Source: Enterobacteria phage JenK1. From it: a DNA stretch of 60,747 nucleotides. A program made the translations under genes and the position numbers. The stretch is from sequence record NC_029021.1. One strand, 5' to 3'. Position 1 is the first letter of the stretch; every line of letters begins with the position of its first letter. Shown piece by piece: positions 24,100 through 35,183 of this stretch. The notes beneath the pieces were generated by a model. The model saw nothing but the letters and a program-made list of their open reading frames with translations. It made no database searches and was not told the origin of the DNA.

Positions 24100-24813
24100 A
24101 TGTCTGACATGACTCTTATTCCGGGCGGTTTGGGTGGCGGTTTCGGTGGTGAAGCTGGCGCAGCGGCCGTTGGCGGTGGTATCGGTGGCTTAATCGGTTC
24201 GTGGATCGGAAATGGTTGGGGTGGCAATGTCGGTTGGGGTGGTCGCGGCGGTTGGGGTGGTGGTGTCGGTGAAGTCCAGGCTTCCGTAGATACTAACGCA
24301 ATTCTGCAAGCCATCAATAACGGCAACCTGCAAAACATCCAGGGCCAGAACGGTACTAACCTGACTGTCGAACGTTCTGCGGCGTCCACCTTCAACGGTA
24401 TTACTCAACAGAACACTCAGAACATGCTGGCTTCCGTTCAGGGCTTTGCTGGTCTGAACACTGAAATTCGCACTGGTACAGCGTCTGTCGTAGCTGCTGT
24501 CAATGCTGCGGATGTAAACGCGTTGAACCGTTCCTTCCAGGCTCAGTTAGCTGCTCAGGAATGTTGCTGCGAGACCAACCTGAACATCGAACGTCAAGCG
24601 AACGAAACCCGTGGCCTGATCCGCGATCAGTTTGCTCAGTCTCAGGCTGTTCTGATCTGTGATCTGAAATCTCAGTTGCAGGAAGCTCGCTTTGCGAACT
24701 CCCAGCTTCATCAGACCGCTCAGATCGATTGTAAGATCAATCAGGTTGCACAGCTCGTTAACTTCAAACTGCCAACCCCTCCGACTCCGCCGACTGGTTG
24801 TTGTGGTTGCTAA
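24100..24813 (+). CDS. Gly-rich N-terminal / Cys-containing hypothetical protein
   Basis: 237 aa; N-terminal 60 aa dominated by GG/GW repeats, Q/N-rich middle, CCC and C-terminal GCCGC; strong host-like codon bias; bracketed by terminators. Confidence 0.6.
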   Translation: MSDMTLIPGGLGGGFGGEAGAAAVGGGIGGLIGSWIGNGWGGNVGWGGRGGWGGGVGEVQASVDTNAILQAINNGNLQNIQGQNGTNLTVERSAASTFNGITQQNTQNMLASVQGFAGLNTEIRTGTASVVAAVNAADVNALNRSFQAQLAAQECCCETNLNIERQANETRGLIRDQFAQSQAVLICDLKSQLQEARFANSQLHQTAQIDCKINQVAQLVNFKLPTPPTPPTGCCGC

Positions 24814-26108: not shown

Positions 26109-26144
26109 GTGGGCCAGTATAAACGTATTGGCCCACTTTTTATT
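26109..26144. terminator. terminator at convergent junction of plus late genes and minus replication operon
   Basis: 8-bp stem gtgggcca / tggcccac, 12-nt loop, then TTTTTATT on plus strand. Confidence 0.55.
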
Positions 26145-28116
26145 AAGCGGCGTATGCGAGTTTTTCCAGCAATTTTTCCGCTTTAGCTATGTACACTTCG
26201 TGGTTGAGATCTGGCGGTAATTGGTCAGTGAGTTCCATCATTGGTTTACCCCCTGCTGTCTTACCAACACGACCTCCACTCTTGACTATTAGTATTTCAG
26301 GTACTTCTTCTTTTGTATAGTACCAGCGAACAACCTTACCTAACGGCTCACTATTCCACGCAGCTCCACCATTAGCTGTCTTGATACAAACAAACTTACG
26401 AATATCCTGACACTCTGTGATAGTTTTGGCAATTGGTGTACCGTCACGAAGCAGATTAACAACTGCATCCATAATGATCTCACCTTCTGCGTTTTTAGCA
26501 AGACCTGTCTCAGCGAACCAACCTTTACGCTTGGCTTTACCATCCGCTTTGATTGCAACGTAGTTGTTAACGTTTGCAGAGTTAAGGCGCAGGTACTGGT
26601 TCAACTCCATTTCAAAGCCAGTTGTCTCTTCCCACCACTTAATGATATCTGTCATTAATTGCTTCTTAGCTTTGCAAGGTTTAATAACAATACCGTCCGT
26701 GTTAGCACTGACGACCTGAATACCGTTAAGCTCCAGTGTTTCAATGAGCATAAGCAAAGCCAACTGGCCTGTCAATGTGGTCTGAATAATAAGGTGCGGT
26801 GCATACAGAATAGAGAACGGTGAACCGAACTTACCATAAGAACCGTTAATAACGATCTTAAGAGTTTGTGCAGTCTTATCGTCATGAGCCATCTTAGCTG
26901 CAATACGTCGTTCTACGATCTTAACAAAGATATCTATAAAGCGCGGGCCCAGGTGCTCAGGATACAGTTGCTGGTTAATGATACAGATTGGGTAGTATGA
27001 CGTTACGTCAGCATCCCACATCTCTTCATCTTCAGATGGTACAATCTCCATTAACTCTTCGCAGGAGTGCAGACCACCGATACCCATGTTGTAGGTTGTC
27101 TGATTGATTGTAAACTTCAAAGAGTTCATTGTAGATGGTTGCTTAATTTTACCATCTTCTGCAACTCGGAAGTAACTATCAAGCACAACCTGAAATACAG
27201 ACTTCATTAGTGGAGTTTGGAAACCTAACCACACTGGAGGATTGTACCTAAAGGTTCTGCCAACTTCCACCATTCCCTTCTGTGGTACGAAGCCCAGCAT
27301 TTCCTTCATTTCGTGACGGATTACAGCTTCTGCAATCTGTGCATCGGATTTAGAGCGAAGGTCCACTTTATACTCTTCACTCATAATCTCACGTAGATGG
27401 ATCTGTTCTTCCAGGGAGTTAAACAGAGCCATTGTTGTATCAAGGTCGTTAATACAGTAGAAGCGCACAATAGCGATCTGTTCTACGGATAACGCCCAAT
27501 GTGGTGGGAATGGTAAGTCCTGGAGCTTCTGCATGTGCATACGGCCACCATACAACTTCAGCGAACCGAAGCCAGGAGCTACCTCTTGAACGTCAATGTG
27601 GTCAATCCAAAACTGTTTTACACCAAAACTGTTAAGAATGTCCCACGGAGCCCACTCTTCCTGGATCATCCTGTCACTTGCTTCTTTCAGCTTGTCAACA
27701 GTTAAACCAGCAATGGCAAGGAATGTCATCGTATTATCGTAGTTTCTTGAGTTGAAACCAACAGTACGAAAGTTCTTCATTATCCATTCATATTTTTCCG
27801 TGTCGAGTGTCTGACCGGCAGTCATTTCTAGATAATAGACCTTACCGAACTTAACCCCTTTAAACGCCACAAGAAAATAGTTCTTGTAACATTCAATATC
27901 GTATACGAACGTTTCTTGCGCAAAATACATCTCCACTAATTCACCGTCTGTCATACGCGGATCATTAGCTGCAAAACGCATTGCTGCATCAAGACCTGGA
28001 AGGTAATCCGGGCGTTCCCATACCCTTTCAACTGGTTGACGTTTTACTTTCTGTTTCTTCTCTTTCTTAGCGGGAGGTAAATCCTCCCAAAAGAAACCAA
28101 TAGCATCTTTTCTCAT
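26143..28116 (-). CDS. DNA polymerase, family B, with 3'-5' exonuclease motifs
   Basis: 657 aa; Exo I YDIE, Exo III YCINDLD, motif A DVTSYYP, motif B KIVINGSYGKFG, motif C NTDG. Confidence 0.8.
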   Translation of the reverse strand: MRKDAIGFFWEDLPPAKKEKKQKVKRQPVERVWERPDYLPGLDAAMRFAANDPRMTDGELVEMYFAQETFVYDIECYKNYFLVAFKGVKFGKVYYLEMTAGQTLDTEKYEWIMKNFRTVGFNSRNYDNTMTFLAIAGLTVDKLKEASDRMIQEEWAPWDILNSFGVKQFWIDHIDVQEVAPGFGSLKLYGGRMHMQKLQDLPFPPHWALSVEQIAIVRFYCINDLDTTMALFNSLEEQIHLREIMSEEYKVDLRSKSDAQIAEAVIRHEMKEMLGFVPQKGMVEVGRTFRYNPPVWLGFQTPLMKSVFQVVLDSYFRVAEDGKIKQPSTMNSLKFTINQTTYNMGIGGLHSCEELMEIVPSEDEEMWDADVTSYYPICIINQQLYPEHLGPRFIDIFVKIVERRIAAKMAHDDKTAQTLKIVINGSYGKFGSPFSILYAPHLIIQTTLTGQLALLMLIETLELNGIQVVSANTDGIVIKPCKAKKQLMTDIIKWWEETTGFEMELNQYLRLNSANVNNYVAIKADGKAKRKGWFAETGLAKNAEGEIIMDAVVNLLRDGTPIAKTITECQDIRKFVCIKTANGGAAWNSEPLGKVVRWYYTKEEVPEILIVKSGGRVGKTAGGKPMMELTDQLPPDLNHEVYIAKAEKLLEKLAYAA

Positions 28117-29105
28117 AGACGAAATCCTACAATTACCCCACGTAGATTTTCACCATAAAAAATAATAGGAGTTGAAAGACCCCTTTCGTCCTTTTCATTG
28201 AAACGCGAGGCATCCCAGTCCGTTGCAAGTCCTTTCAACTGCATAATAAGATCTATATTATACACGCCAATTGACTTGGATTCACGGAACATTGCACTAG
28301 CACCATCCAACTCGTTGTAATGTGTGCGTACAACACCGTTTTCCATGTAAATACGCCCATCCCGCTCACAGAACGGTTTTATCTTTTCTAGGCAATTAAA
28401 AAGCTCAGTATCAAGCGTATAAACGTCGGACCCCTTTTCTGTGCGCTCAATTATCTTATCAATGTTAGGCCACTTTAATTCCAGCAATTGTGTACGCAAC
28501 CAGCAACCGTCTTCGTAGTGAAATGTCATACTGGTATCCGTACATTGAATTCTTACTGGTGGCTTTTTAATACGCAATAATTCTTTGATGGCCATACGTG
28601 GCACAACACAATCTACAGGGAATACAGCACCGAACCAATATTGTATAATACTAGCGTTGTTGGTCGCGTACATGCTGCCCTGTTTTACCAGCACGCCGCA
28701 AGACCACGGGCGGGAAGCATCGTCGCTTATAAATGGCGTTACGCGGCTTAAACCGTTGAGAAAAAGCTGACCGTCTATTTCGTGAATTGTTCCTTCTGGC
28801 TCTACGTGTGCAGTTGGTTTTTGAAGAGTATCCACACTAACCTTAAAGCCACCAGACTTAATGCTCAACTTACCGTTCGCCAACATTGTCATCTGTACAG
28901 CTTCATCACATGCTGCAATAGCTTTCAACATTGGTTCAGCTTTAGGTGTGCAGTCAATATTCAGCGGCACTGGACTACACAATGAAATAGTTCCGTTGAA
29001 CCCGCGCACAGTACCATCAACAATACGGAAGTGAGTTAAACCTTCCTGAAGTTCTTTCTTAGCTACAGAACCCTGAACAAACTTTAAAGCATCAAGTAAA
29101 TCCAT
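28113..29105 (-). CDS. hypothetical protein between DpdA and DNA polymerase
   Basis: 330-aa ORF, translationally coupled to polymerase; no motif recognised. Confidence 0.5.
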   Translation of the reverse strand: MDLLDALKFVQGSVAKKELQEGLTHFRIVDGTVRGFNGTISLCSPVPLNIDCTPKAEPMLKAIAACDEAVQMTMLANGKLSIKSGGFKVSVDTLQKPTAHVEPEGTIHEIDGQLFLNGLSRVTPFISDDASRPWSCGVLVKQGSMYATNNASIIQYWFGAVFPVDCVVPRMAIKELLRIKKPPVRIQCTDTSMTFHYEDGCWLRTQLLELKWPNIDKIIERTEKGSDVYTLDTELFNCLEKIKPFCERDGRIYMENGVVRTHYNELDGASAMFRESKSIGVYNIDLIMQLKGLATDWDASRFNEKDERGLSTPIIFYGENLRGVIVGFRL

Positions 29106-29113
29106 AAGTAACC

Positions 29114-30067
29114 TTATTCGTCAAATAAATCCTGGAGACGTTCGTTGAACTTCCCATTGTGGTTAGCAAGAATCATAGCGTTGACCACACCATACGCCCA
29201 TAAATTGTATGCAGCGCGTGATTCGTATATCGTTGAAAGTCGTTCGTATGTGAAACCTGACTCCTCTAAGTAGCGTAGAACGTTATTCTGTTCTATTTCT
29301 GAAAGGTTACAGATATGCTGTCCTTGATAATGGCGTGACGGGGACTTTTCGGATACCTGCATTGGGCCCCACTTAGGAGTTTCAATAGCACCAAACGCCG
29401 CAGATTGAATCCAGGAGGATGAGTCACAGGAGTACCACGGGTAACGCTCCATAAGCGGGCGGGACGTAATACCAAAGCCGTGGACTTTAATCTTAGCGCG
29501 TCCACTACCGTCTACAAGGTGTTTATCCCATACCCTGTCCAGCCATACCTGAAGTTGTTGTGTACTCGCTCCAACAAGACCACCGAGAGTGATATATTCA
29601 TAATTTCGCACATAATGGTCCAGGTATTCAAAAGGTTCACCGGCGTGGAAGCATGGTAAAGGTCTTACACCCCTGGCTTCCATCTCTTCCTGGTTGCGCC
29701 ACGTTTGAAGTGGATCTCCGATACCATCGAGTACAGAAGCCATAAGCGAACCATCTTCTACACGGATGATATCTATGTTTCGTTGGATGTAATCACAGTA
29801 TTCTTTAACCGATAACGTAACTCCCAAAGTGTAGGCTGAGAACGCCCCGGAGTCGAGGAATATCTTGGCCCCATCGGCACGCATGGCATCAACATAGGAT
29901 TGCTTTCCAACGTAGTGCCAGGATTCAAGAATGTTTGGAATATTCTCGACAACGCGTTTTTCTTGCTCGTTGAGTTTGACATAGCGGTTCATTCCTGGTT
30001 TATAGCTGTTCGTATATACGGCAGCCATATAAATCTGAAAGGTATAATCGATATCTTGTCTGTGCAT
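29114..30067 (-). CDS. dpdA: tRNA-guanine transglycosylase-like DNA 7-deazaguanine transglycosylase (DpdA-like)
   Basis: 317 aa; FLDSGAFS motif resembles the TGT DSGGFQ substrate-binding motif and YSCDSSSW resembles the catalytic Asp region; adjacent to the preQ0 pathway genes. Confidence 0.6.
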   Translation of the reverse strand: MHRQDIDYTFQIYMAAVYTNSYKPGMNRYVKLNEQEKRVVENIPNILESWHYVGKQSYVDAMRADGAKIFLDSGAFSAYTLGVTLSVKEYCDYIQRNIDIIRVEDGSLMASVLDGIGDPLQTWRNQEEMEARGVRPLPCFHAGEPFEYLDHYVRNYEYITLGGLVGASTQQLQVWLDRVWDKHLVDGSGRAKIKVHGFGITSRPLMERYPWYSCDSSSWIQSAAFGAIETPKWGPMQVSEKSPSRHYQGQHICNLSEIEQNNVLRYLEESGFTYERLSTIYESRAAYNLWAYGVVNAMILANHNGKFNERLQDLFDE

Positions 30068-30136
30068 TGTTCACCTAACAAATAAGCGCCCGTAGGCGCT
30101 TATTATATTAAAGATAATGTATGATTCGCAAATCAG

Positions 30137-30751
30137 TTACTTTTTACACGCTTCAAGAAATTCCCGACGCCATGTGTCACCAGTTACGTCCGGTAATACA
30201 CCATCGCCCAATGCAGTACGCCCGCGGAATGCCTTAGTGATGGTTGAGCTACCGCATACCTGTTTAATACCGCGCGACTCCATGCACATATGTTTTGCAT
30301 CGATGTAGACGCACACAGCTTTCGGCTCTAAATGGTCACGGATGGCGTCCGCAATCTGGTTAGTTAAACGTTCTTGGACTTGCAAACGTCGAGCGAAAGC
30401 ATCAACTACCCGAGATAACTTGCTGAGACCGACAATTTTTCCATTTGGAACATATCCAACCACCGCATGACCAATAATAGGAGCCATGTGATGCTCACAA
30501 TGACTATATACAGGGATATCGCGAACGATGACCATTTCATCGCAGTCTTCCCCACCATCTTCAAATGTCTTGAACAGGGATGCGATATCGACAGAATAAC
30601 CCCCGAACCACGTCTCAAATGCTTTAGCGACGCGCAATGGAGTTTCAACTAGACCTTCACGCAAGTCATCGCCACCTTCAATCAACTTTAAAATCTTTTC
30701 AATACTGTGCGAAATTTCTGCTCGGTTTGTCATCTTTGTAAATTCATTCAT
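30137..30751 (-). CDS. folE: GTP cyclohydrolase I
   Basis: YSHCEHHMAPIIG signature; ATG at 30751 chosen (track start 30787 is TTG and overlaps QueD). Confidence 0.85.
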   Translation of the reverse strand: MNEFTKMTNRAEISHSIEKILKLIEGGDDLREGLVETPLRVAKAFETWFGGYSVDIASLFKTFEDGGEDCDEMVIVRDIPVYSHCEHHMAPIIGHAVVGYVPNGKIVGLSKLSRVVDAFARRLQVQERLTNQIADAIRDHLEPKAVCVYIDAKHMCMESRGIKQVCGSSTITKAFRGRTALGDGVLPDVTGDTWRREFLEACKK

Positions 30752-30777
30752 GGTTTGCAGTTTCCTTGTGTGGTCAA

Positions 30778-31311
30778 TTATTTGCAATAGTTAACATGGC
30801 ATTTGGACGTTTCTTCAATGGTGCATTCTACCAATTCAACACCATATTGGTCAAGCAGTTGAGGACCAATTACGTCAACCATATATGCAGCTAAGTTTTC
30901 CGCAGTTGGGTTGAATGGTAAAGCTACCAAAGAATCAAAGAACGGATCATAATCTTCATCCGTTACTAAATTGTTCTCACGTGCAAACTTAGTCGATGCG
31001 ACAACAATGAGCGAATTAATTACGCTGTCTTGTTCCCAATGCAGGAACTTATGATCCCAATTATCTTCCAACCACTGGCAAAGCGTAGTTTTAACCACAC
31101 TGAAGTCGATAACGCGACCTACGTCATCCAGCGAACCTTCTAGAGCAAATCCACTTACAGACTTGACGTAACCTTCCGACAATGTTTTCTTCGGGGCAAC
31201 TTTAAAATGGAACTTATAGTTGTGGCCATGCAGGTGACGACATTTACTTTCATGTCCTACGACACGATGCCCAGCGCAAATCTCATGTGAACGAATAACA
31301 GTGTAACCCAT
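30778..31311 (-). CDS. queD: 6-carboxy-5,6,7,8-tetrahydropterin synthase
   Basis: CRHLHGHNY zinc-binding Cx4HGH motif; start at Met 31311 avoids overlap with upstream gene. Confidence 0.8.
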   Translation of the reverse strand: MGYTVIRSHEICAGHRVVGHESKCRHLHGHNYKFHFKVAPKKTLSEGYVKSVSGFALEGSLDDVGRVIDFSVVKTTLCQWLEDNWDHKFLHWEQDSVINSLIVVASTKFARENNLVTDEDYDPFFDSLVALPFNPTAENLAAYMVDVIGPQLLDQYGVELVECTIEETSKCHVNYCK

Positions 31312-31312
31312 T

Positions 31313-32728
31313 TTATTCCTCGCTTTCGTATTTAATAACTTCTTGTGCATTATTAATATTAAACGCAGTCCGACGCATCATGCAAGGGCCACAAGTACCG
31401 CAATGCAAATCCCCGTTACGGTAACAGCTCCAAGTGTGCTCCAACGGGGCCCCTAAACGCAGACCTGTAGCGACAATTTCGTGCTTCATTAAGTTACCTA
31501 CCGGCATGAGCACTTCAACGCGCTTACCGTCCCCTACAGCGAACGGTAACACTTGATTAAAGCGGTTAATAAACTCAGGCTCGTTGTCCGGATAGGCTCC
31601 AGCTTCTTCTAGGTTGTTACCAAGAACAATATAGTCGAAACCGTTAGCTTCTGCGTATGCAGTAGCAACAGAAAGCATTACAAGGTTACGAGCTGGAACC
31701 CATTCATGCGCGAATTCAGCGCCTTCTTCACCGCCAGCAATTGCAGCATCTTGATCAAATAACGGGCTATCTTTTTTATCGTAAATTGGAATTGGGAATT
31801 CAACTAATGGAACTTCCATCACTTCCGCAATCTTACGAATAGCATACAGCTCATTAGTTTCTGCACGACAACCATACTGGAAGTTAATCAGAGTAACATC
31901 TAAACCATTGGACTTACACATTTGAGCTGCTACTGTGCTGTCCATACCGCCACTGGCGACAACTAACGCACGTTGAGTTTGCTTATTTGGAATAAGATCA
32001 ACTTCATTGCACACATCAGTCGATGTGACCACATTACATGAATAAGGCTTCAGCATCTGCTTAATAGCGCGGGTTGGTAGCATGTCTTCCTGGCTGGCGA
32101 AATACATACCAGTATCAGTCTTACCGATCCAGATTGGACGATAATTACATGCTGTAAACACACATCCTGGAAAGGAATCATGTGTTGCAAGGATTGCGAA
32201 GCTACCTTTCAATTTGCGAACAACTTCATGAAACACACTGTACAGGTAATTAAAGTCAGACAAACACATTTCATCTGCTGAAAGTGTACATTCTGCCAAC
32301 TGTTCAACGATCGCAGCACTATCAATCTTAGTCTGTAGGGCATAGGTACGAAGGTCTTTATCGTTCGCAATAGTACCGTTATGAACAATAGTCCAACCAT
32401 CCATATGATACGGTTGCTGGTCCCACTCATTCTTGTCAACGACCCACTCTGTAGTCGGTTCAGCGCGAGCGTTACCAATCATTGTGAAGCTACCAATAGC
32501 TCCAGCATGAGATACAATGCGCCCAACTTTAACAAGACGTTCCAGCGATGTTTTCTTACCGACACTAACAATACGTTGCGGGTGCATACTGTGGTCACCA
32601 TGCGTAAAGCGTACACCAAGACCATCACGACCACGGCTGATACTAGCTTTAATAAGATCCTCAATGTCGTTACGGATAATAAGACTTTCAGGTTGACCGT
32701 TAGTAATAACACCAAAGATAGAGCACAT
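31313..32728 (-). CDS. queC: class-II glutamine amidotransferase fused to QueC-like PP-loop synthetase (Gat-QueC)
   Basis: Start at MCSIFGV (AsnB-type N-terminal Cys nucleophile); SGGMDS PP-loop; C-terminal WSCY...CGTCGPC...R zinc motif typical of QueC. Confidence 0.75.
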   Translation of the reverse strand: MCSIFGVITNGQPESLIIRNDIEDLIKASISRGRDGLGVRFTHGDHSMHPQRIVSVGKKTSLERLVKVGRIVSHAGAIGSFTMIGNARAEPTTEWVVDKNEWDQQPYHMDGWTIVHNGTIANDKDLRTYALQTKIDSAAIVEQLAECTLSADEMCLSDFNYLYSVFHEVVRKLKGSFAILATHDSFPGCVFTACNYRPIWIGKTDTGMYFASQEDMLPTRAIKQMLKPYSCNVVTSTDVCNEVDLIPNKQTQRALVVASGGMDSTVAAQMCKSNGLDVTLINFQYGCRAETNELYAIRKIAEVMEVPLVEFPIPIYDKKDSPLFDQDAAIAGGEEGAEFAHEWVPARNLVMLSVATAYAEANGFDYIVLGNNLEEAGAYPDNEPEFINRFNQVLPFAVGDGKRVEVLMPVGNLMKHEIVATGLRLGAPLEHTWSCYRNGDLHCGTCGPCMMRRTAFNINNAQEVIKYESEE

Positions 32729-32729
32729 A

Positions 32730-33491
32730 TTATTTACCTTCCTTAACCATTTCAATTTCACGCTCAACGGATGCAATAATATCGTTGAGGTCTTCCAGTA
32801 AGTCTTTATGACCGCGCTCACCCGCACACAGCACTTTCTTCAGTGCATGTTGCATGGGCCCACTGGTTACATTGAATGCTTTAATTACGTCGTACACGTC
32901 AACCCATACATCGATTTCGATTGGGCTACCGTTAAGGTCATGGGATTCAAAAGTTTTAATTTTGCGCATATATTTATTTGGACGTGGAGCTTTAATCTCC
33001 TGGATACAACCCTTGTCGATAAACGTTTCTTTAATGAATACTTCCGGATCGCCTTCTTTGTTACGATCAACTTTAAAGACGCTCGTAAGTACATCTTCCA
33101 TGATACTTGTTAATTTATGAGTGGACGTTGTGTGCTTCATGGTATTCGCTTCCGCTTCTTCTGACACTTTCTGACTTCTTCTAGCAGAAGCATTGATACG
33201 CCATTTGTAAAGTGCGTTACGTGGAGGTGTTACATGCGTGTTGTAGACCGTCTTTAAGTTCATAAGATCGTGTCCATCCATAGCTTCAACAAAAACAGTG
33301 AGTGCAGGACTACTATCGTTCAGAACATCCACCAAATATCCTTCCCGAATTACAGATGCAAGAGCTGCATGTGACGCGGCCTGAGAAACTGTGGTTACAT
33401 AATGTTTCACAAATCCGTCTTCATCAAACAGACACTGGTTTAACACATTTTCTGGAACAATTTCACCGAGTAATTGAACGTGCTTATTCAC
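32730..33491 (-). CDS. hypothetical protein embedded in 7-deazaguanine cluster
   Basis: 253-aa ORF between Gat-QueC and QueE, tightly coupled; no motif recognised. Confidence 0.55.
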   Translation of the reverse strand: MNKHVQLLGEIVPENVLNQCLFDEDGFVKHYVTTVSQAASHAALASVIREGYLVDVLNDSSPALTVFVEAMDGHDLMNLKTVYNTHVTPPRNALYKWRINASARRSQKVSEEAEANTMKHTTSTHKLTSIMEDVLTSVFKVDRNKEGDPEVFIKETFIDKGCIQEIKAPRPNKYMRKIKTFESHDLNGSPIEIDVWVDVYDVIKAFNVTSGPMQHALKKVLCAGERGHKDLLEDLNDIIASVEREIEMVKEGK

Positions 33492-33525
33492 AATAATTTA
33501 CCTTATTAGTTGAATATGTATAACT

Positions 33526-34314
33526 TTACTCTACACCTAAATATTTATGAATCTGCAATTGCACGATGTAATTGTGCTTCATTGCATATTTAACGACAGC
33601 TTGAGCGTTTGCTTTATTAGCATCGTCGTCCTGTTCATCCATAGGTTGAAGATAAATCTTACCTTTAAAGTGTACAGGTGGGCGTGCAATAAATGGTGTC
33701 GCACGGTGATCCAGTGCCTGCAACGGTAATCCATCTTCCTCGTTGACGTTTCCGCTTTTCATTACATATTTGAAAGCATCCGCTCGAGCGGAAACGCTAG
33801 GGTGAACCTTTGCTGCCTTAGGACTACATACTACCACACAGTTATAGTTGAGTTCACGCGGGATAGGCATAGTTCCGTTAGTTTCGACCTGTACGCGATA
33901 ACCTTTCATATCAATAAGGTAATTGATAAAATTAGCAACTTCAGGTTGACGGAAAGGTTCGCCGCCAGTAATGACAACTAAGTTAGTCTTGGCTTCACCA
34001 GTAACACGGACAATCTCTTGCCAAATGTCACCGTGGTTCATCTTCTTACGATTGGATGTATAGTTTGTATCACATCCTGGGCATTGCAGATTACAACCAG
34101 CTAATCGAACAAATACGGCAGGTTGACCACAAAATGGGCCTTCGCCTTGAATGGTATGAAAAATGGAATGTACGTCAAGAATACCACGTTCACGAACTAA
34201 CTTCTCAGGTTCCTGAGTATTAATAATTTTCATATGATTTCCAAATTTGGCTTGAGCCCAGTGGTGGGCGATAATGGCTTGTGCAAACATTTGAACCTCG
34301 GGGTAAGATAACAA
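33526..34314 (-). CDS. queE: 7-carboxy-7-deazaguanine synthase (radical SAM)
   Basis: CNLQCPGC radical-SAM Cx3Cx2C-type motif; 262 aa. Confidence 0.85.
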   Translation of the reverse strand: MLSYPEVQMFAQAIIAHHWAQAKFGNHMKIINTQEPEKLVRERGILDVHSIFHTIQGEGPFCGQPAVFVRLAGCNLQCPGCDTNYTSNRKKMNHGDIWQEIVRVTGEAKTNLVVITGGEPFRQPEVANFINYLIDMKGYRVQVETNGTMPIPRELNYNCVVVCSPKAAKVHPSVSARADAFKYVMKSGNVNEEDGLPLQALDHRATPFIARPPVHFKGKIYLQPMDEQDDDANKANAQAVVKYAMKHNYIVQLQIHKYLGVE

Positions 34315-34358
34315 AGGGGCAGTAAATGCCCCTTCTGAGTTTCCGAAGTATCTACAGA

Positions 34359-35183
34359 TTACTCTGCAGTTTTCTGAGACGGAATTTCTACGTTAGCGGC
34401 CGCTTGTGCAATATTAGCAGGTACTGGAACGGATACGCGACCAGTAATGCCCATGTATTTTTTCCAGCGAGCGTATTCCGCTTTAACGTTCGCTTCGTTC
34501 AGGCCTTTGTCCAGTGCAACAGGCAGAACGTAGCTGATCGGTGCAGTCTGACCCAGCTCCATGGTGACAGCGTCAAAGATATCCCATGCAGCACGGCACA
34601 GAGTACCGACACCAGGCTTACGAATACCGTTCTGTTCAGGCTCTTTCTTAGCTTCGCGTTCTGCTGCTTTACGAGCACGCTCTTCGTCCTGCAGACGTTT
34701 CTTCTCAGCGCGTTGTGCGTCACGTTGAGCTTTTTCAGCGGCCTTAGTGGCTTCGCGGGCAGCGGATACACGACCTTTAACATCTTTCAGAGTGGATTCA
34801 ATGGAGGAAACCAGATCTTCAGATGCTGCAACGGCAGTTTTCAGCTGATCGTTGTCTTTAACTTTACGTGCTGCCGCTTTAACAGCTTTCAGACCTTCTT
34901 TAGCGGTCTTCAGTTGAGCGGTAACTACGCCTTCAACTGCTTTAACTTCGTCCAGCAATGAACCTTCGTTCAGGGTCGCGAACTGTTCTTTAACAGCGGA
35001 CATAGCACCTTCGATCACATTGTAACCGGCAGTGGCTTCGTTCATTGCGGCGTCAACTTTAGCCTGCAATTCACGTGCTGCTTTTTCTTCAGCTTCACGT
35101 TTTTTCTTTGCTTCAGCTTCTTTTGCTGCTTTCTTTGCTGCTTCTTCTGCTTCCAGTTGTTCTGGAGTTTTCTCTTTAGCCAT
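34359..35183 (-). CDS. highly charged coiled-coil protein, probably abundant
   Basis: 274 aa, K/E/A-rich N-terminus, globular C-terminus; very strong host-like codon bias; strong promoter immediately upstream. Confidence 0.6.
   Translation of the reverse strand: MAKEKTPEQLEAEEAAKKAAKEAEAKKKREAEEKAARELQAKVDAAMNEATAGYNVIEGAMSAVKEQFATLNEGSLLDEVKAVEGVVTAQLKTAKEGLKAVKAAARKVKDNDQLKTAVAASEDLVSSIESTLKDVKGRVSAAREATKAAEKAQRDAQRAEKKRLQDEERARKAAEREAKKEPEQNGIRKPGVGTLCRAAWDIFDAVTMELGQTAPISYVLPVALDKGLNEANVKAEYARWKKYMGITGRVSVPVPANIAQAAANVEIPSQKTAE

Follow-up and report, generated by a model that had tools for sequence, protein, structure and literature searches.

The fusion of an amidotransferase domain to QueC, named Gat-QueC, and its role in placing dG+ in phage DNA are already known, having been established for phage 9g between 2016 and 2019. 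About 25% of the dG in 9g virion DNA is replaced by dG+, as determined by LC-MS/MS (PMC5699537, PMC10516641). Expression of 9g gat-queC and dpdA in E. coli yielded dG+ at 9-18% of G, with essentially no dPreQ0, and dG+ was also formed in a delta-queC host, while a delta-queD strain carrying the same two genes gave no EcoRI-resistant plasmid (PMC6884629). Together with DpdA, the 9g enzyme covers the canonical QueC step in vivo, replacing the host QueC but not QueD. When expressed singly, 9g dpdA gave only dPreQ0, at 0.03-0.3%, and 9g gat-queC did not restore queuosine in the tRNA of delta-queC E. coli (PMC6884629). Phages of the sister genus Seuratvirus, which carry a plain QueC, have dPreQ0 in their DNA (PMC6884629, PMC10516641), and the exchange of Gat-QueC for QueC is a known genetic switch between the dG+ phages (Nonagvirus) and the dPreQ0 phages (Seuratvirus).

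Gat-QueC is also a known archaeosine synthase of Crenarchaeota and Thaumarchaeota (PMC5485725). The archaeal proteins are reported to cluster with those of phages and, on expression in E. coli, to produce G+ (PMC6884629, PMC5485725), but their target is tRNA, with G+ at position 14/15 and arcTGT as partner, whereas the phage enzymes serve DNA and are paired with DpdA. The end product G+ is likewise reached, from the level of preQ0, by ArcS, a TGT paralog, and by QueF-L, a T-fold protein; neither is homologous to Gat-QueC, and both work on preQ0 already in tRNA (PMC5699537, PMC5485725). In Nonagvirus, dG+ protects the DNA against a large proportion of the type II restriction enzymes (PMC5567051), and defence glycosylases degrade 7-deazaguanine-modified DNA, that of 9g included (bioRxiv 10.1101/2025.10.29.685425).

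The gat-queC locus of JenK1 and its neighbours

The window analysed here is the whole 60,747-nucleotide stretch of phage JenK1 (NC_029021.1), which by its sequence is that of a Nonagvirus (Queuovirinae) and a relative of phage 9g. The two phages are different isolates, and JenK1 is nearest to vB_EcoS_HdK1 (99.4% protein and 97.8% DNA identity). The predicted Gat-QueC is encoded by a single uninterrupted ORF of 471 codons with its stop at 31313-31315; it is 98% identical to 9g AHN84522 over all 471 amino acids, has the same length, and none of the 11 substitutions between the two proteins falls at an invariant position. It is covered end to end by phrog_10428 (E=1.7e-287), and in related phages the gene is annotated as "dPreQ0 and archaeosine synthase Gat-QueC". 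Assignments by Pfam, NCBIfam and PHROG show folE, queD, queE and dpdA clustered with it (Table 1), and the module DpdA-FolE-QueD-GatQueC-hypothetical-QueE is fully syntenic with that of 9g, at 96.4% nucleotide identity. Very probably, the ORF encodes the Nonagvirus ortholog of 9g Gat-QueC, the bifunctional enzyme of a five-gene dG+ DNA-modification module.

Table 1. Predicted features of the gat-queC locus and its module, with positions in the window.
Feature	Position	Strand	Basis
DpdA, DNA guanine transglycosylase inserting 7-deazaguanine	29114..30067	-	9g DpdA identity; phrog_887 E=4e-98
FolE, GTP cyclohydrolase I	30137..30751	-	Pfam GTP_cyclohydroI E=4.5e-62; start is Met13 of the ORF
QueD, CPH4 synthase	30778..31311	-	Pfam PTPS E=1.8e-20; start is Met14 of the ORF
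Gat-QueC CDS, dPreQ0/archaeosine synthase	31313..32728	-	ORF translation; 471 aa and stop
QueC-type PP-loop ATP pyrophosphatase domain, ~residues 246-471	31316..31993	-	Pfam QueC; QueC structures
Zinc motif CYRNGDLHCGTCGPC, C435-x7-C443-x2-C446-x2-C449	31382..31426	-	Motif search; near the C-terminus
PP-loop SGGMDS, residues 259-264	31937..31954	-	Motif search; invariant in 64 homologs
Class-II (Ntn) glutamine amidotransferase domain, ~residues 1-245	31994..32728	-	Pfam GATase_7 and GATase_6, NCBIfam GlmS, AF2
Catalytic Cys2 codon of Gat-QueC	32723-32725	-	Nucleophile position of the GlmS model
Shine-Dalgarno sequence AAGGAAGG of Gat-QueC	32737..32744	-	Direct sequence reading; 8 nt upstream of ATG 32728
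Conserved 253-aa protein, putative pathway member at most	32730..33491	-	phrog_18443; between Gat-QueC and QueE
QueE, radical-SAM CDG synthase	33526..34290	-	Pfam Radical_SAM and Fer4_12; NCBIfam QueE E~1e-26

Translation from ATG 32728, which begins 1 nt after the upstream gene ends in TAA, gives the N-terminus MCSIFGV that had been read in the initial annotation. A longer ORF could be opened at GTG 32827, but it was rejected because no Shine-Dalgarno sequence precedes that codon, the upstream gene would be overlapped and the homologs start with MC. This dipeptide is the N-terminus of 63 of the 64 diverse Gat-QueC homologs compared (52-67% identity), the Cys2 being invariant in their alignment, and archaeal homologs start with (M/V/L)CS. 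With the start mapped in this way, the catalytic Cys is kept. The orientation of the gene on the minus strand had not been stated in the initial annotation.

The neighbouring genes also follow those of 9g. DpdA has no match in Pfam or NCBIfam, but 316 of its 317 residues (99%) are identical to those of the 9g enzyme. The starts adopted for FolE, QueD and QueE, the latter at Met9 of its ORF, give genes of 615, 534 and 765 nt, as annotated in 9g, where FolE also starts at Met13; for QueD, ATG 31311 is preceded by GAGGAA, and ATG 31350 has no Shine-Dalgarno sequence in front of it. The 253-aa protein is found at the corresponding place in both 9g and ChristophMerian and has no Pfam or NCBIfam match even at E<=10. 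It was set aside as a required pathway component, given that dG+ is formed in E. coli without it (PMC6884629) and that it has no family assignment. Searches with Pfam and NCBIfam found no homolog of ArcS or QueF-L in the module. FolE has a weak Pfam match to QueF, which lies under its cut-off and was discarded as a hidden QueF; it probably arises from the fold common to both families.

The two domains of the enzyme

Domain prediction with Pfam resolved both parts of the fusion, GATase_7 scoring 29.4 bits (cut-off 25) over residues 97-217 and QueC 188 bits over residues 253-458. GATase_7 is the sole Pfam amidotransferase model over its cut-off and is too unspecific to separate GlmS from AsnB. 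The alignment to the GlmS-subfamily model of NCBIfam takes in residues 1-218 and starts at profile position 1, which puts Cys2 at the nucleophile position, and C2, R32-G-R-D-G36, N86, R88, N117-G118 and D136 are invariant in this domain in all 64 homologs. In the AF2 model (pLDDT 89.8, pTM 0.86) the N-terminal domain has a fold resembling the glutaminase domains of GlmS, AsnS, PurF and EgtC, and its top single-domain match is 1xff, the glutaminase domain of GlmS (TM 0.77).

The initial annotation had called this domain AsnB-type. The class-II Ntn domain with its Cys nucleophile stands, but the label was dropped as too specific, as GlmS comes ahead of AsnB in NCBIfam (E=3.8e-11 vs 3.3e-6), in PDB sequence matches and in Foldseek, where GlmS/GFAT structures hold ranks 1-30 and AsnS and AsnB ranks 31 and 38. 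The AsnB equivalog TIGR01536, with a cut-off of 267 bits, reaches 26 and spans only residues 96-217, the glutaminase region, and the protein has no Pfam match to Asn_synthase. Judged by sequence and predicted structure, this domain belongs to the class-II Ntn amidotransferases and is nearest to GlmS. AsnB, GlmS and PurF likewise consist of a Cys1-bearing Ntn glutaminase at the N-terminus and a synthase domain after it; in AsnB this second domain is Asn_synthase, whereas QueC takes its place in Gat-QueC. As in Gat-QueC, the synthase domain of AsnB is one of the ATP-pyrophosphatases and activates a carboxylate by adenylation, and the overall logic of the phage enzyme is AsnB-like in that ammonia from glutamine attacks an adenylated acid.

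The C-terminal domain matches the QueC structures 2pg3 (E=3e-13) and 3bl5 (E=2e-10). The PP-loop and the zinc motif had both been described as ending the ORF; the zinc motif does lie near the C-terminus, but the PP-loop is found where the C-terminal domain begins. The four zinc Cys, Y436 and a first spacer of seven residues are invariant in 64 of 64 homologs, as are SGGxDS, VPARN, Y285, R347 and Y379, and the C(x)7 spacer is also present in the 19 archaeal and bacterial homologs checked (19/19). A tblastn search of the window for a second QueC, with either the QueC domain of Gat-QueC or phage CAjan's stand-alone QueC as query, gave none at E<=1; both queries led to the Gat-QueC locus only, in keeping with the earlier observation that a stand-alone QueC is absent from the window.

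Gat-QueC shares with the canonical QueC proteins (E. coli, B. subtilis 3BL5, CAjan) the PF06508 fold, SGGxDS, VPxRN and the zinc Cys cluster, and it keeps as Y285, R347, Y379 and Y436 all four residues that are essential in E. coli QueC (Y35, R99, Y131 and Y189). The canonical proteins have no amidotransferase domain, and the identity to QueC of CAjan, a sister-genus phage, is only 28-29%. By the canonical motif definitions (PMC13329287), all 64 homologs differ from QueC in having YG(C/S)RA..E in place of YxQxHxxE, with the Q and H absent, and YPDN in place of YPDC; moreover, their zinc spacer is one residue shorter, C(x)7 against C(x)8 in QueC. These differences are also seen in alignments with 2pg3, 3bl5 and CAjan QueC. 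The QueC equivalog TIGR00364 is narrowly missed (148.5 bits, cut-off 150.3); NF008317, at 48 bits, stays well under its cut-off of 378. Since three QueC motif residues are missing and TIGR00364 is not reached, the chemistry of Gat-QueC may differ from that of a plain QueC with an added step. What the alignments add here is small: as far as sequence goes, the Gat-QueC family of phages and archaea keeps the four QueC-essential residues and has fixed differences from QueC.

Full-length homologs from Crenarchaeota and Thaumarchaeota have 36-42% identity over residues 1-468 and share the two-domain architecture with the phage enzyme. The signature common to both groups consists of the N-terminal Cys-Ser, VPARN, YPDN and C-x7-CGxCGPC, while the PP-loop is followed by the motif Y-x-H-x-A-E in the archaeal proteins and by Y-G-(S/C)-R-A-E in those of phages. 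Matches in bacterial genomes were not taken as cellular Gat-QueC; the one inspected, in Paraburkholderia, sits in a prophage beside a large terminase.

Possible routes to archaeosine

The initial annotation predicted either an amidated, archaeosine-like product or a single enzyme for both nitrile formation and amidation, and held that the base installed could not be deduced from sequence. The first prediction matches the dG+ published for the 98%-identical 9g system, and a single enzyme for both steps fits the finding that 9g gat-queC and dpdA suffice, even in delta-queC (PMC6884629). The reservation was too pessimistic, since the near-identity to the characterised 9g system allows the installed base to be inferred by homology as dG+. 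For JenK1 the practical value is one of annotation: dG+ would be expected in the phage DNA, where it would bear on host range as well as on cloning, restriction mapping and some sequencing chemistries.

In the proposed pathway, FolE, QueD and QueE would convert GTP to 7-carboxy-7-deazaguanine (CDG). The QueC domain, with its PP-loop and zinc, would activate CDG with ATP and take it through the amide ADG to the nitrile preQ0, like canonical QueC. Glutamine would be hydrolysed in the amidotransferase domain at Cys2 (Cys1 once Met is removed), and its ammonia would pass to the QueC site, where it could serve in the formation of the amide and also in turning the nitrile, or an activated form preceding it, into the formamidine found in archaeosine (G+). 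DpdA would then replace some of the guanines of the phage DNA by the 7-deazaguanine base, and the dG+-bearing DNA would resist many restriction enzymes. In this scheme we infer the individual chemical steps within Gat-QueC and the channelling of ammonia.

We lean slightly towards G+, or an enzyme-bound precursor of it, being made before insertion and not on dPreQ0 in the DNA. The reverse order, to which we give somewhat less than an even chance, would have Gat-QueC hand preQ0 directly to DpdA and afterwards convert dPreQ0 in the DNA to dG+, in parallel with the action of ArcS or QueF-L on preQ0-tRNA in archaea. In its favour, preQ0 is put into E. coli DNA by 9g DpdA acting alone (PMC6884629), DpdA1 has been described as inserting preQ0 and the failed queuosine complementation was read as channelling of preQ0 to DpdA (PMC6884629, PMC10516641), and in archaea preQ0 enters tRNA before its modification by ArcS or QueF-L (PMC6884629, PMC5485725). 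However, from the level of dG+ reached with both genes (9-18% of G), set against the 0.03-0.3% dPreQ0 with DpdA alone (PMC6884629), we infer a difficulty for insertion of preQ0 as the earlier step. No free preQ0 appears to reach QueF/TGT, and this is more easily explained by an enzyme that releases something other than preQ0. Moreover, the Gat-QueC family yields G+ in tRNA, both archaeal and of E. coli, as well as in phage DNA, a breadth that would be unexpected of an enzyme recognising one particular polymer, and Pfam and NCBIfam found no nucleic-acid-binding domain in the protein. A more specific form of synthesis before insertion, possible in our opinion but rather doubtful, is that Gat-QueC never releases preQ0: ammonia from glutamine, passed through an interdomain tunnel, would intercept the second ATP-activated intermediate, the O-adenylated amide, or the nascent nitrile within the QueC pocket, free G+ would be released and DpdA would insert it directly. 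If this were true, the change of YPDC to YPDN, the loss of Q and H from YxQxHxxE and the shorter zinc loop would constitute the switch from nitrile to amidine synthase. The question of 2019, whether modification comes before or after insertion, would be settled as well, for the whole Gat-QueC family and not specially for JenK1.

It is very improbable that Gat-QueC is only a glutamine-dependent preQ0 synthase, with dPreQ0 as the installed base and the amidine supplied by some other protein of the phage, for example the 253-aa one next to it. Ammonia is the nitrogen donor of canonical QueC (PMC13329287) and a fused glutaminase could feed that step, and the neighbouring protein is conserved and of no assigned function; but the two 9g genes gave dG+ and essentially no dPreQ0 without it, delta-queC included (PMC6884629), dG+ is what 9g virion DNA contains (PMC5699537, PMC10516641), and dPreQ0 belongs to Seuratvirus with its plain QueC (PMC6884629, PMC10516641). 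Hardly to be expected at all is that the fusion is unreal or non-functional, through a mis-assigned start that would leave the protein without its Cys nucleophile or through decay of the N-terminal domain to a relic. The longer GTG-started ORF and the modest Pfam amidotransferase score of 29 bits could be read in this way, but the Shine-Dalgarno sequence stands at the ATG and not at the GTG, whose ORF would run into the upstream gene, and the MC start is nearly universal among the homologs, with Cys-Ser retained in archaea. Every class-II catalytic position is invariant, and the N-terminal domain is modelled by AF2 with high confidence and superposes on the glutaminase domain of GlmS.

Gat-QueC and its domains

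The glutamine amidotransferase-QueC fusion (Gat-QueC) of phage JenK1 is a real feature that was correctly read from the sequence, and an already known one: its ortholog has been characterised by experiment, in a phage genus that is well described. It is identical at 460 of 471 residues (98%) to AHN84522 of the Nonagvirus coliphage 9g and at 99.4% to the HdK1 protein, and the same gene in the BASEL phage ChristophMerian is annotated as 'dPreQ0 and archaeosine synthase Gat-QueC'. Tsai et al. 2017 described the protein as bifunctional, with a GnAT-II N-terminal and a QueC C-terminal domain, and listed the same homolog set (PMC5567051). The fusion is one of three alternative types of archaeosine synthase and was first recognised in Crenarchaeota (PMC5485725).

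Features of the JenK1 genome considered here
Feature	Position	Strand	Description
237-aa ORF	24100-24813	+	Gly-rich N-terminus, Cys-rich C-terminal tail (…TGCCGC)
DNA polymerase ORF	26143-28116	-	657 aa
tRNA-Ala (anticodon TGC)	26546-26619	+	ARAGORN call
DpdA	29114-30067	-	316/317 residues identical to 9g DpdA
Gat-QueC	31313-32728	-	ATG 32728, stop 31313-31315; 471 aa, N-terminus MCSIFGV
253-aa protein	32730-33491	-	between Gat-QueC and QueE; position conserved in 9g and ChristophMerian

The ATG start lies 1 nt past the TAA of the upstream gene and 8 nt past the Shine-Dalgarno sequence AAGGAAGG. The GTG at 32827, taken from a mechanical ORF list, was rejected: no Shine-Dalgarno sequence precedes it, and the ORF starting there runs into the upstream gene. 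From ATG 32728 the protein has Cys directly after the initiator Met. The predicted fusion was confirmed by Pfam, which places GATase_7 at residues 97-217 (29.4 bits, cut-off 25) and QueC at 253-458 (188 bits), together with the SGGMDS PP-loop (259-264) and the zinc motif CYRNGDLHCGTCGPC (435-449). Moreover, residues 1-218 align to the NCBIfam GlmS-subfamily model from its position 1 onwards, so that Cys2 falls on the nucleophile. A tblastn search of the window with this QueC domain and the stand-alone QueC of the Seuratvirus CAjan found no second QueC, as the initial annotation had proposed.

A search of a 5.8-billion-protein collection (E<=1e-10) returned 1548 homologs, the best 120 of which are all full-length fusions. 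Among 64 of these, aligned at 52-67% identity, the invariant glutaminase residues are M1 (MC N-terminus in 63/64), C2, R32-G-R-D-G36, N86, R88, N117-G118 and D136-S137; those on the QueC side are S259-G-G-x-D-S264, P345-A-R-N348, Y379-P-D-N382, C435, Y436, C443, C446 and C449. The AlphaFold2 model built from this alignment is confident (pLDDT 89.8, pTM 0.86). With Foldseek against the PDB, GlmS and GFAT rank first, followed by AsnS/AsnB, PurF and EgtC, and the isolated GlmS glutaminase domain 1xff aligns with a TM of 0.77 and an rmsd of 3.5 Å. By this ranking the modelled N-terminal domain is a class-II Ntn amidotransferase, as first suggested, but the label 'AsnB-type' lacks specific support. 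The likeness to AsnB is one of overall logic, a glutaminase feeding a carboxylate-adenylating ATP-pyrophosphatase. The PDB search found no structure of the fusion; the C-terminal domain matched stand-alone QueC (2pg3, 3bl5) and Cap9 only.

Relationship to canonical QueC

Canonical QueC carries five motifs, SGGxDS, YxQxHxxE, VPxRN, YPDC and C(x)8CxxCxxC, and the residues essential in the E. coli enzyme are Y35, R99, Y131 and Y189 (2026 study, PMC13329287). All four are kept and invariant in Gat-QueC, as Y285, R347, Y379 and Y436. However, in 64/64 Gat-QueC homologs YxQxHxxE is replaced by YG(C/S)RA..E, with loss of the Q and H, YPDC by YPDN, and the first zinc spacer has 7 rather than 8 residues.

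In a scan of one prokaryotic genome per species, full-length homologs with 36-42% identity occur in Sulfolobales, Thermoproteales, Thaumarchaeota and Bathyarchaeota, and nearly all homologs inspected have the N-terminal Cys-Ser, VPARN, YPDN and C-x7-CGxCGPC. Paraburkholderia adhaesiva encodes a shorter homolog (NZ_JAJEJQ010000002.1, region L043 6001-11185; 414 aa, 40% identity), adjoining FolE, a radical-SAM protein and a large terminase in the chromosome, and therefore in a prophage; further bacterial matches came from Amycolatopsis, Arthrobacter and an Anaerolinea MAG. The signature (YPDN, Q/H loss, C(x)7 with CGxCGPC) is common to phage, archaeal and bacterial prophage members. Since archaea share it, the QueC of CAjan, from the sister genus, is only 28-29% identical to the Gat-QueC QueC domain, and this domain falls just under the NCBIfam QueC equivalog threshold (148.5 against 150.3), sequence comparison places the fusion in a distinct, old lineage common to phages and archaea. 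It was not formed recently from a QueC of the phage itself. The signature residues are candidates for what directs the enzyme to an amidine instead of a nitrile product. We found no mention of these differences in the accessible literature, and they are a minor descriptive addition.

Formation of archaeosine and its timing

In 9g DNA about 25% of dG is deoxyarchaeosine (dG+) (PMC5699537; PMC10516641). The 9g folE, queD and queE genes each complemented the corresponding E. coli mutant (Hutinet et al. 2019, PMC6884629). With dpdA as the only phage gene, these authors obtained plasmids whose sole modification was dPreQ0, at 0.03-0.3% of G; when gat-queC was present as well, dG+ made up 9-18% of G, also in a delta-queC host. 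With both genes, EcoRI-resistant plasmid was not seen in a delta-queD host, and queuosine was not restored in delta-queC by gat-queC on its own (PMC6884629). In archaea Gat-QueC is the archaeosine synthase, archaeosine (G+) lying at tRNA position 14/15 (PMC5699537), and archaeal Gat-QueC expressed in E. coli yields G+ in tRNA (PMC6884629; PMC5485725). Thus, the proposal of an amidated, archaeosine-like product from a single fusion enzyme is correct, although publications of 2016-2019 had already established it.

By analogy with 9g, FolE, QueD and QueE would make CDG, as complementation shows for that phage (PMC6884629). The QueC domain may then take CDG through ADG to the preQ0 level, in two steps that each need ATP, as canonical QueC chemistry (PMC13329287) and the delta-queC bypass (PMC6884629) suggest. 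Glutamine would be hydrolysed at Cys2, its ammonia serving both the amide and the formamidine in the QueC pocket, and DpdA, the DNA guanine transglycosylase, would exchange guanine in DNA, as shown for 9g (PMC6884629). G+ could be formed after base insertion, which is a serious alternative. However, the host Q pathway receives no preQ0 (PMC6884629), adding Gat-QueC raises the modification level 30- to 500-fold (PMC6884629), and one family yields G+ in both tRNA and phage DNA; for these reasons we lean slightly towards G+ being formed before insertion, as a free-base product.

The module and its surroundings

Window positions 29000-34400 show 96.4% identity to 9g over their full length and 91-96% to further genomes of Nonagvirus; vB_EcoS_HdK1 shares 97.8% identity with the first 25 kb of the window. 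The module order, all on the minus strand, is DpdA, FolE, QueD, Gat-QueC, the 253-aa hypothetical protein and QueE, as annotated in 9g. DpdA matches no Pfam family (the TGT family included) and no NCBIfam model at E<=0.01 and is recognised by phrog_887 alone; standard domain libraries would therefore overlook the module's key transglycosylase. Searches of Pfam and NCBIfam with the 253-aa protein were empty even at E<=10. Its PHROG match is phrog_18443, and several other PHROGs match the ~120 residues at its C-terminus; all of these groups are of unknown function. In the 9g experiments the protein was dispensable for dG+ formation in E. coli (PMC6884629).

A longer QueD ORF, starting 13 codons further upstream at ATG 31350 (-), would overlap the last 38 nt of Gat-QueC. 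This start has no Shine-Dalgarno sequence and is disfavoured, since the ATG at 31311 has one (GAGGAA) and agrees with the 9g annotation. The TTG-started ORFs of FolE and QueE exceed the 9g annotations in length.

Elsewhere in the window, the tRNA-Ala call lies wholly within the DNA polymerase ORF, on the opposite strand, and is probably a false positive. The 237-aa ORF, at the end of the tail/structural region, is mirrored on the opposite strand by a Pro-rich ORF.
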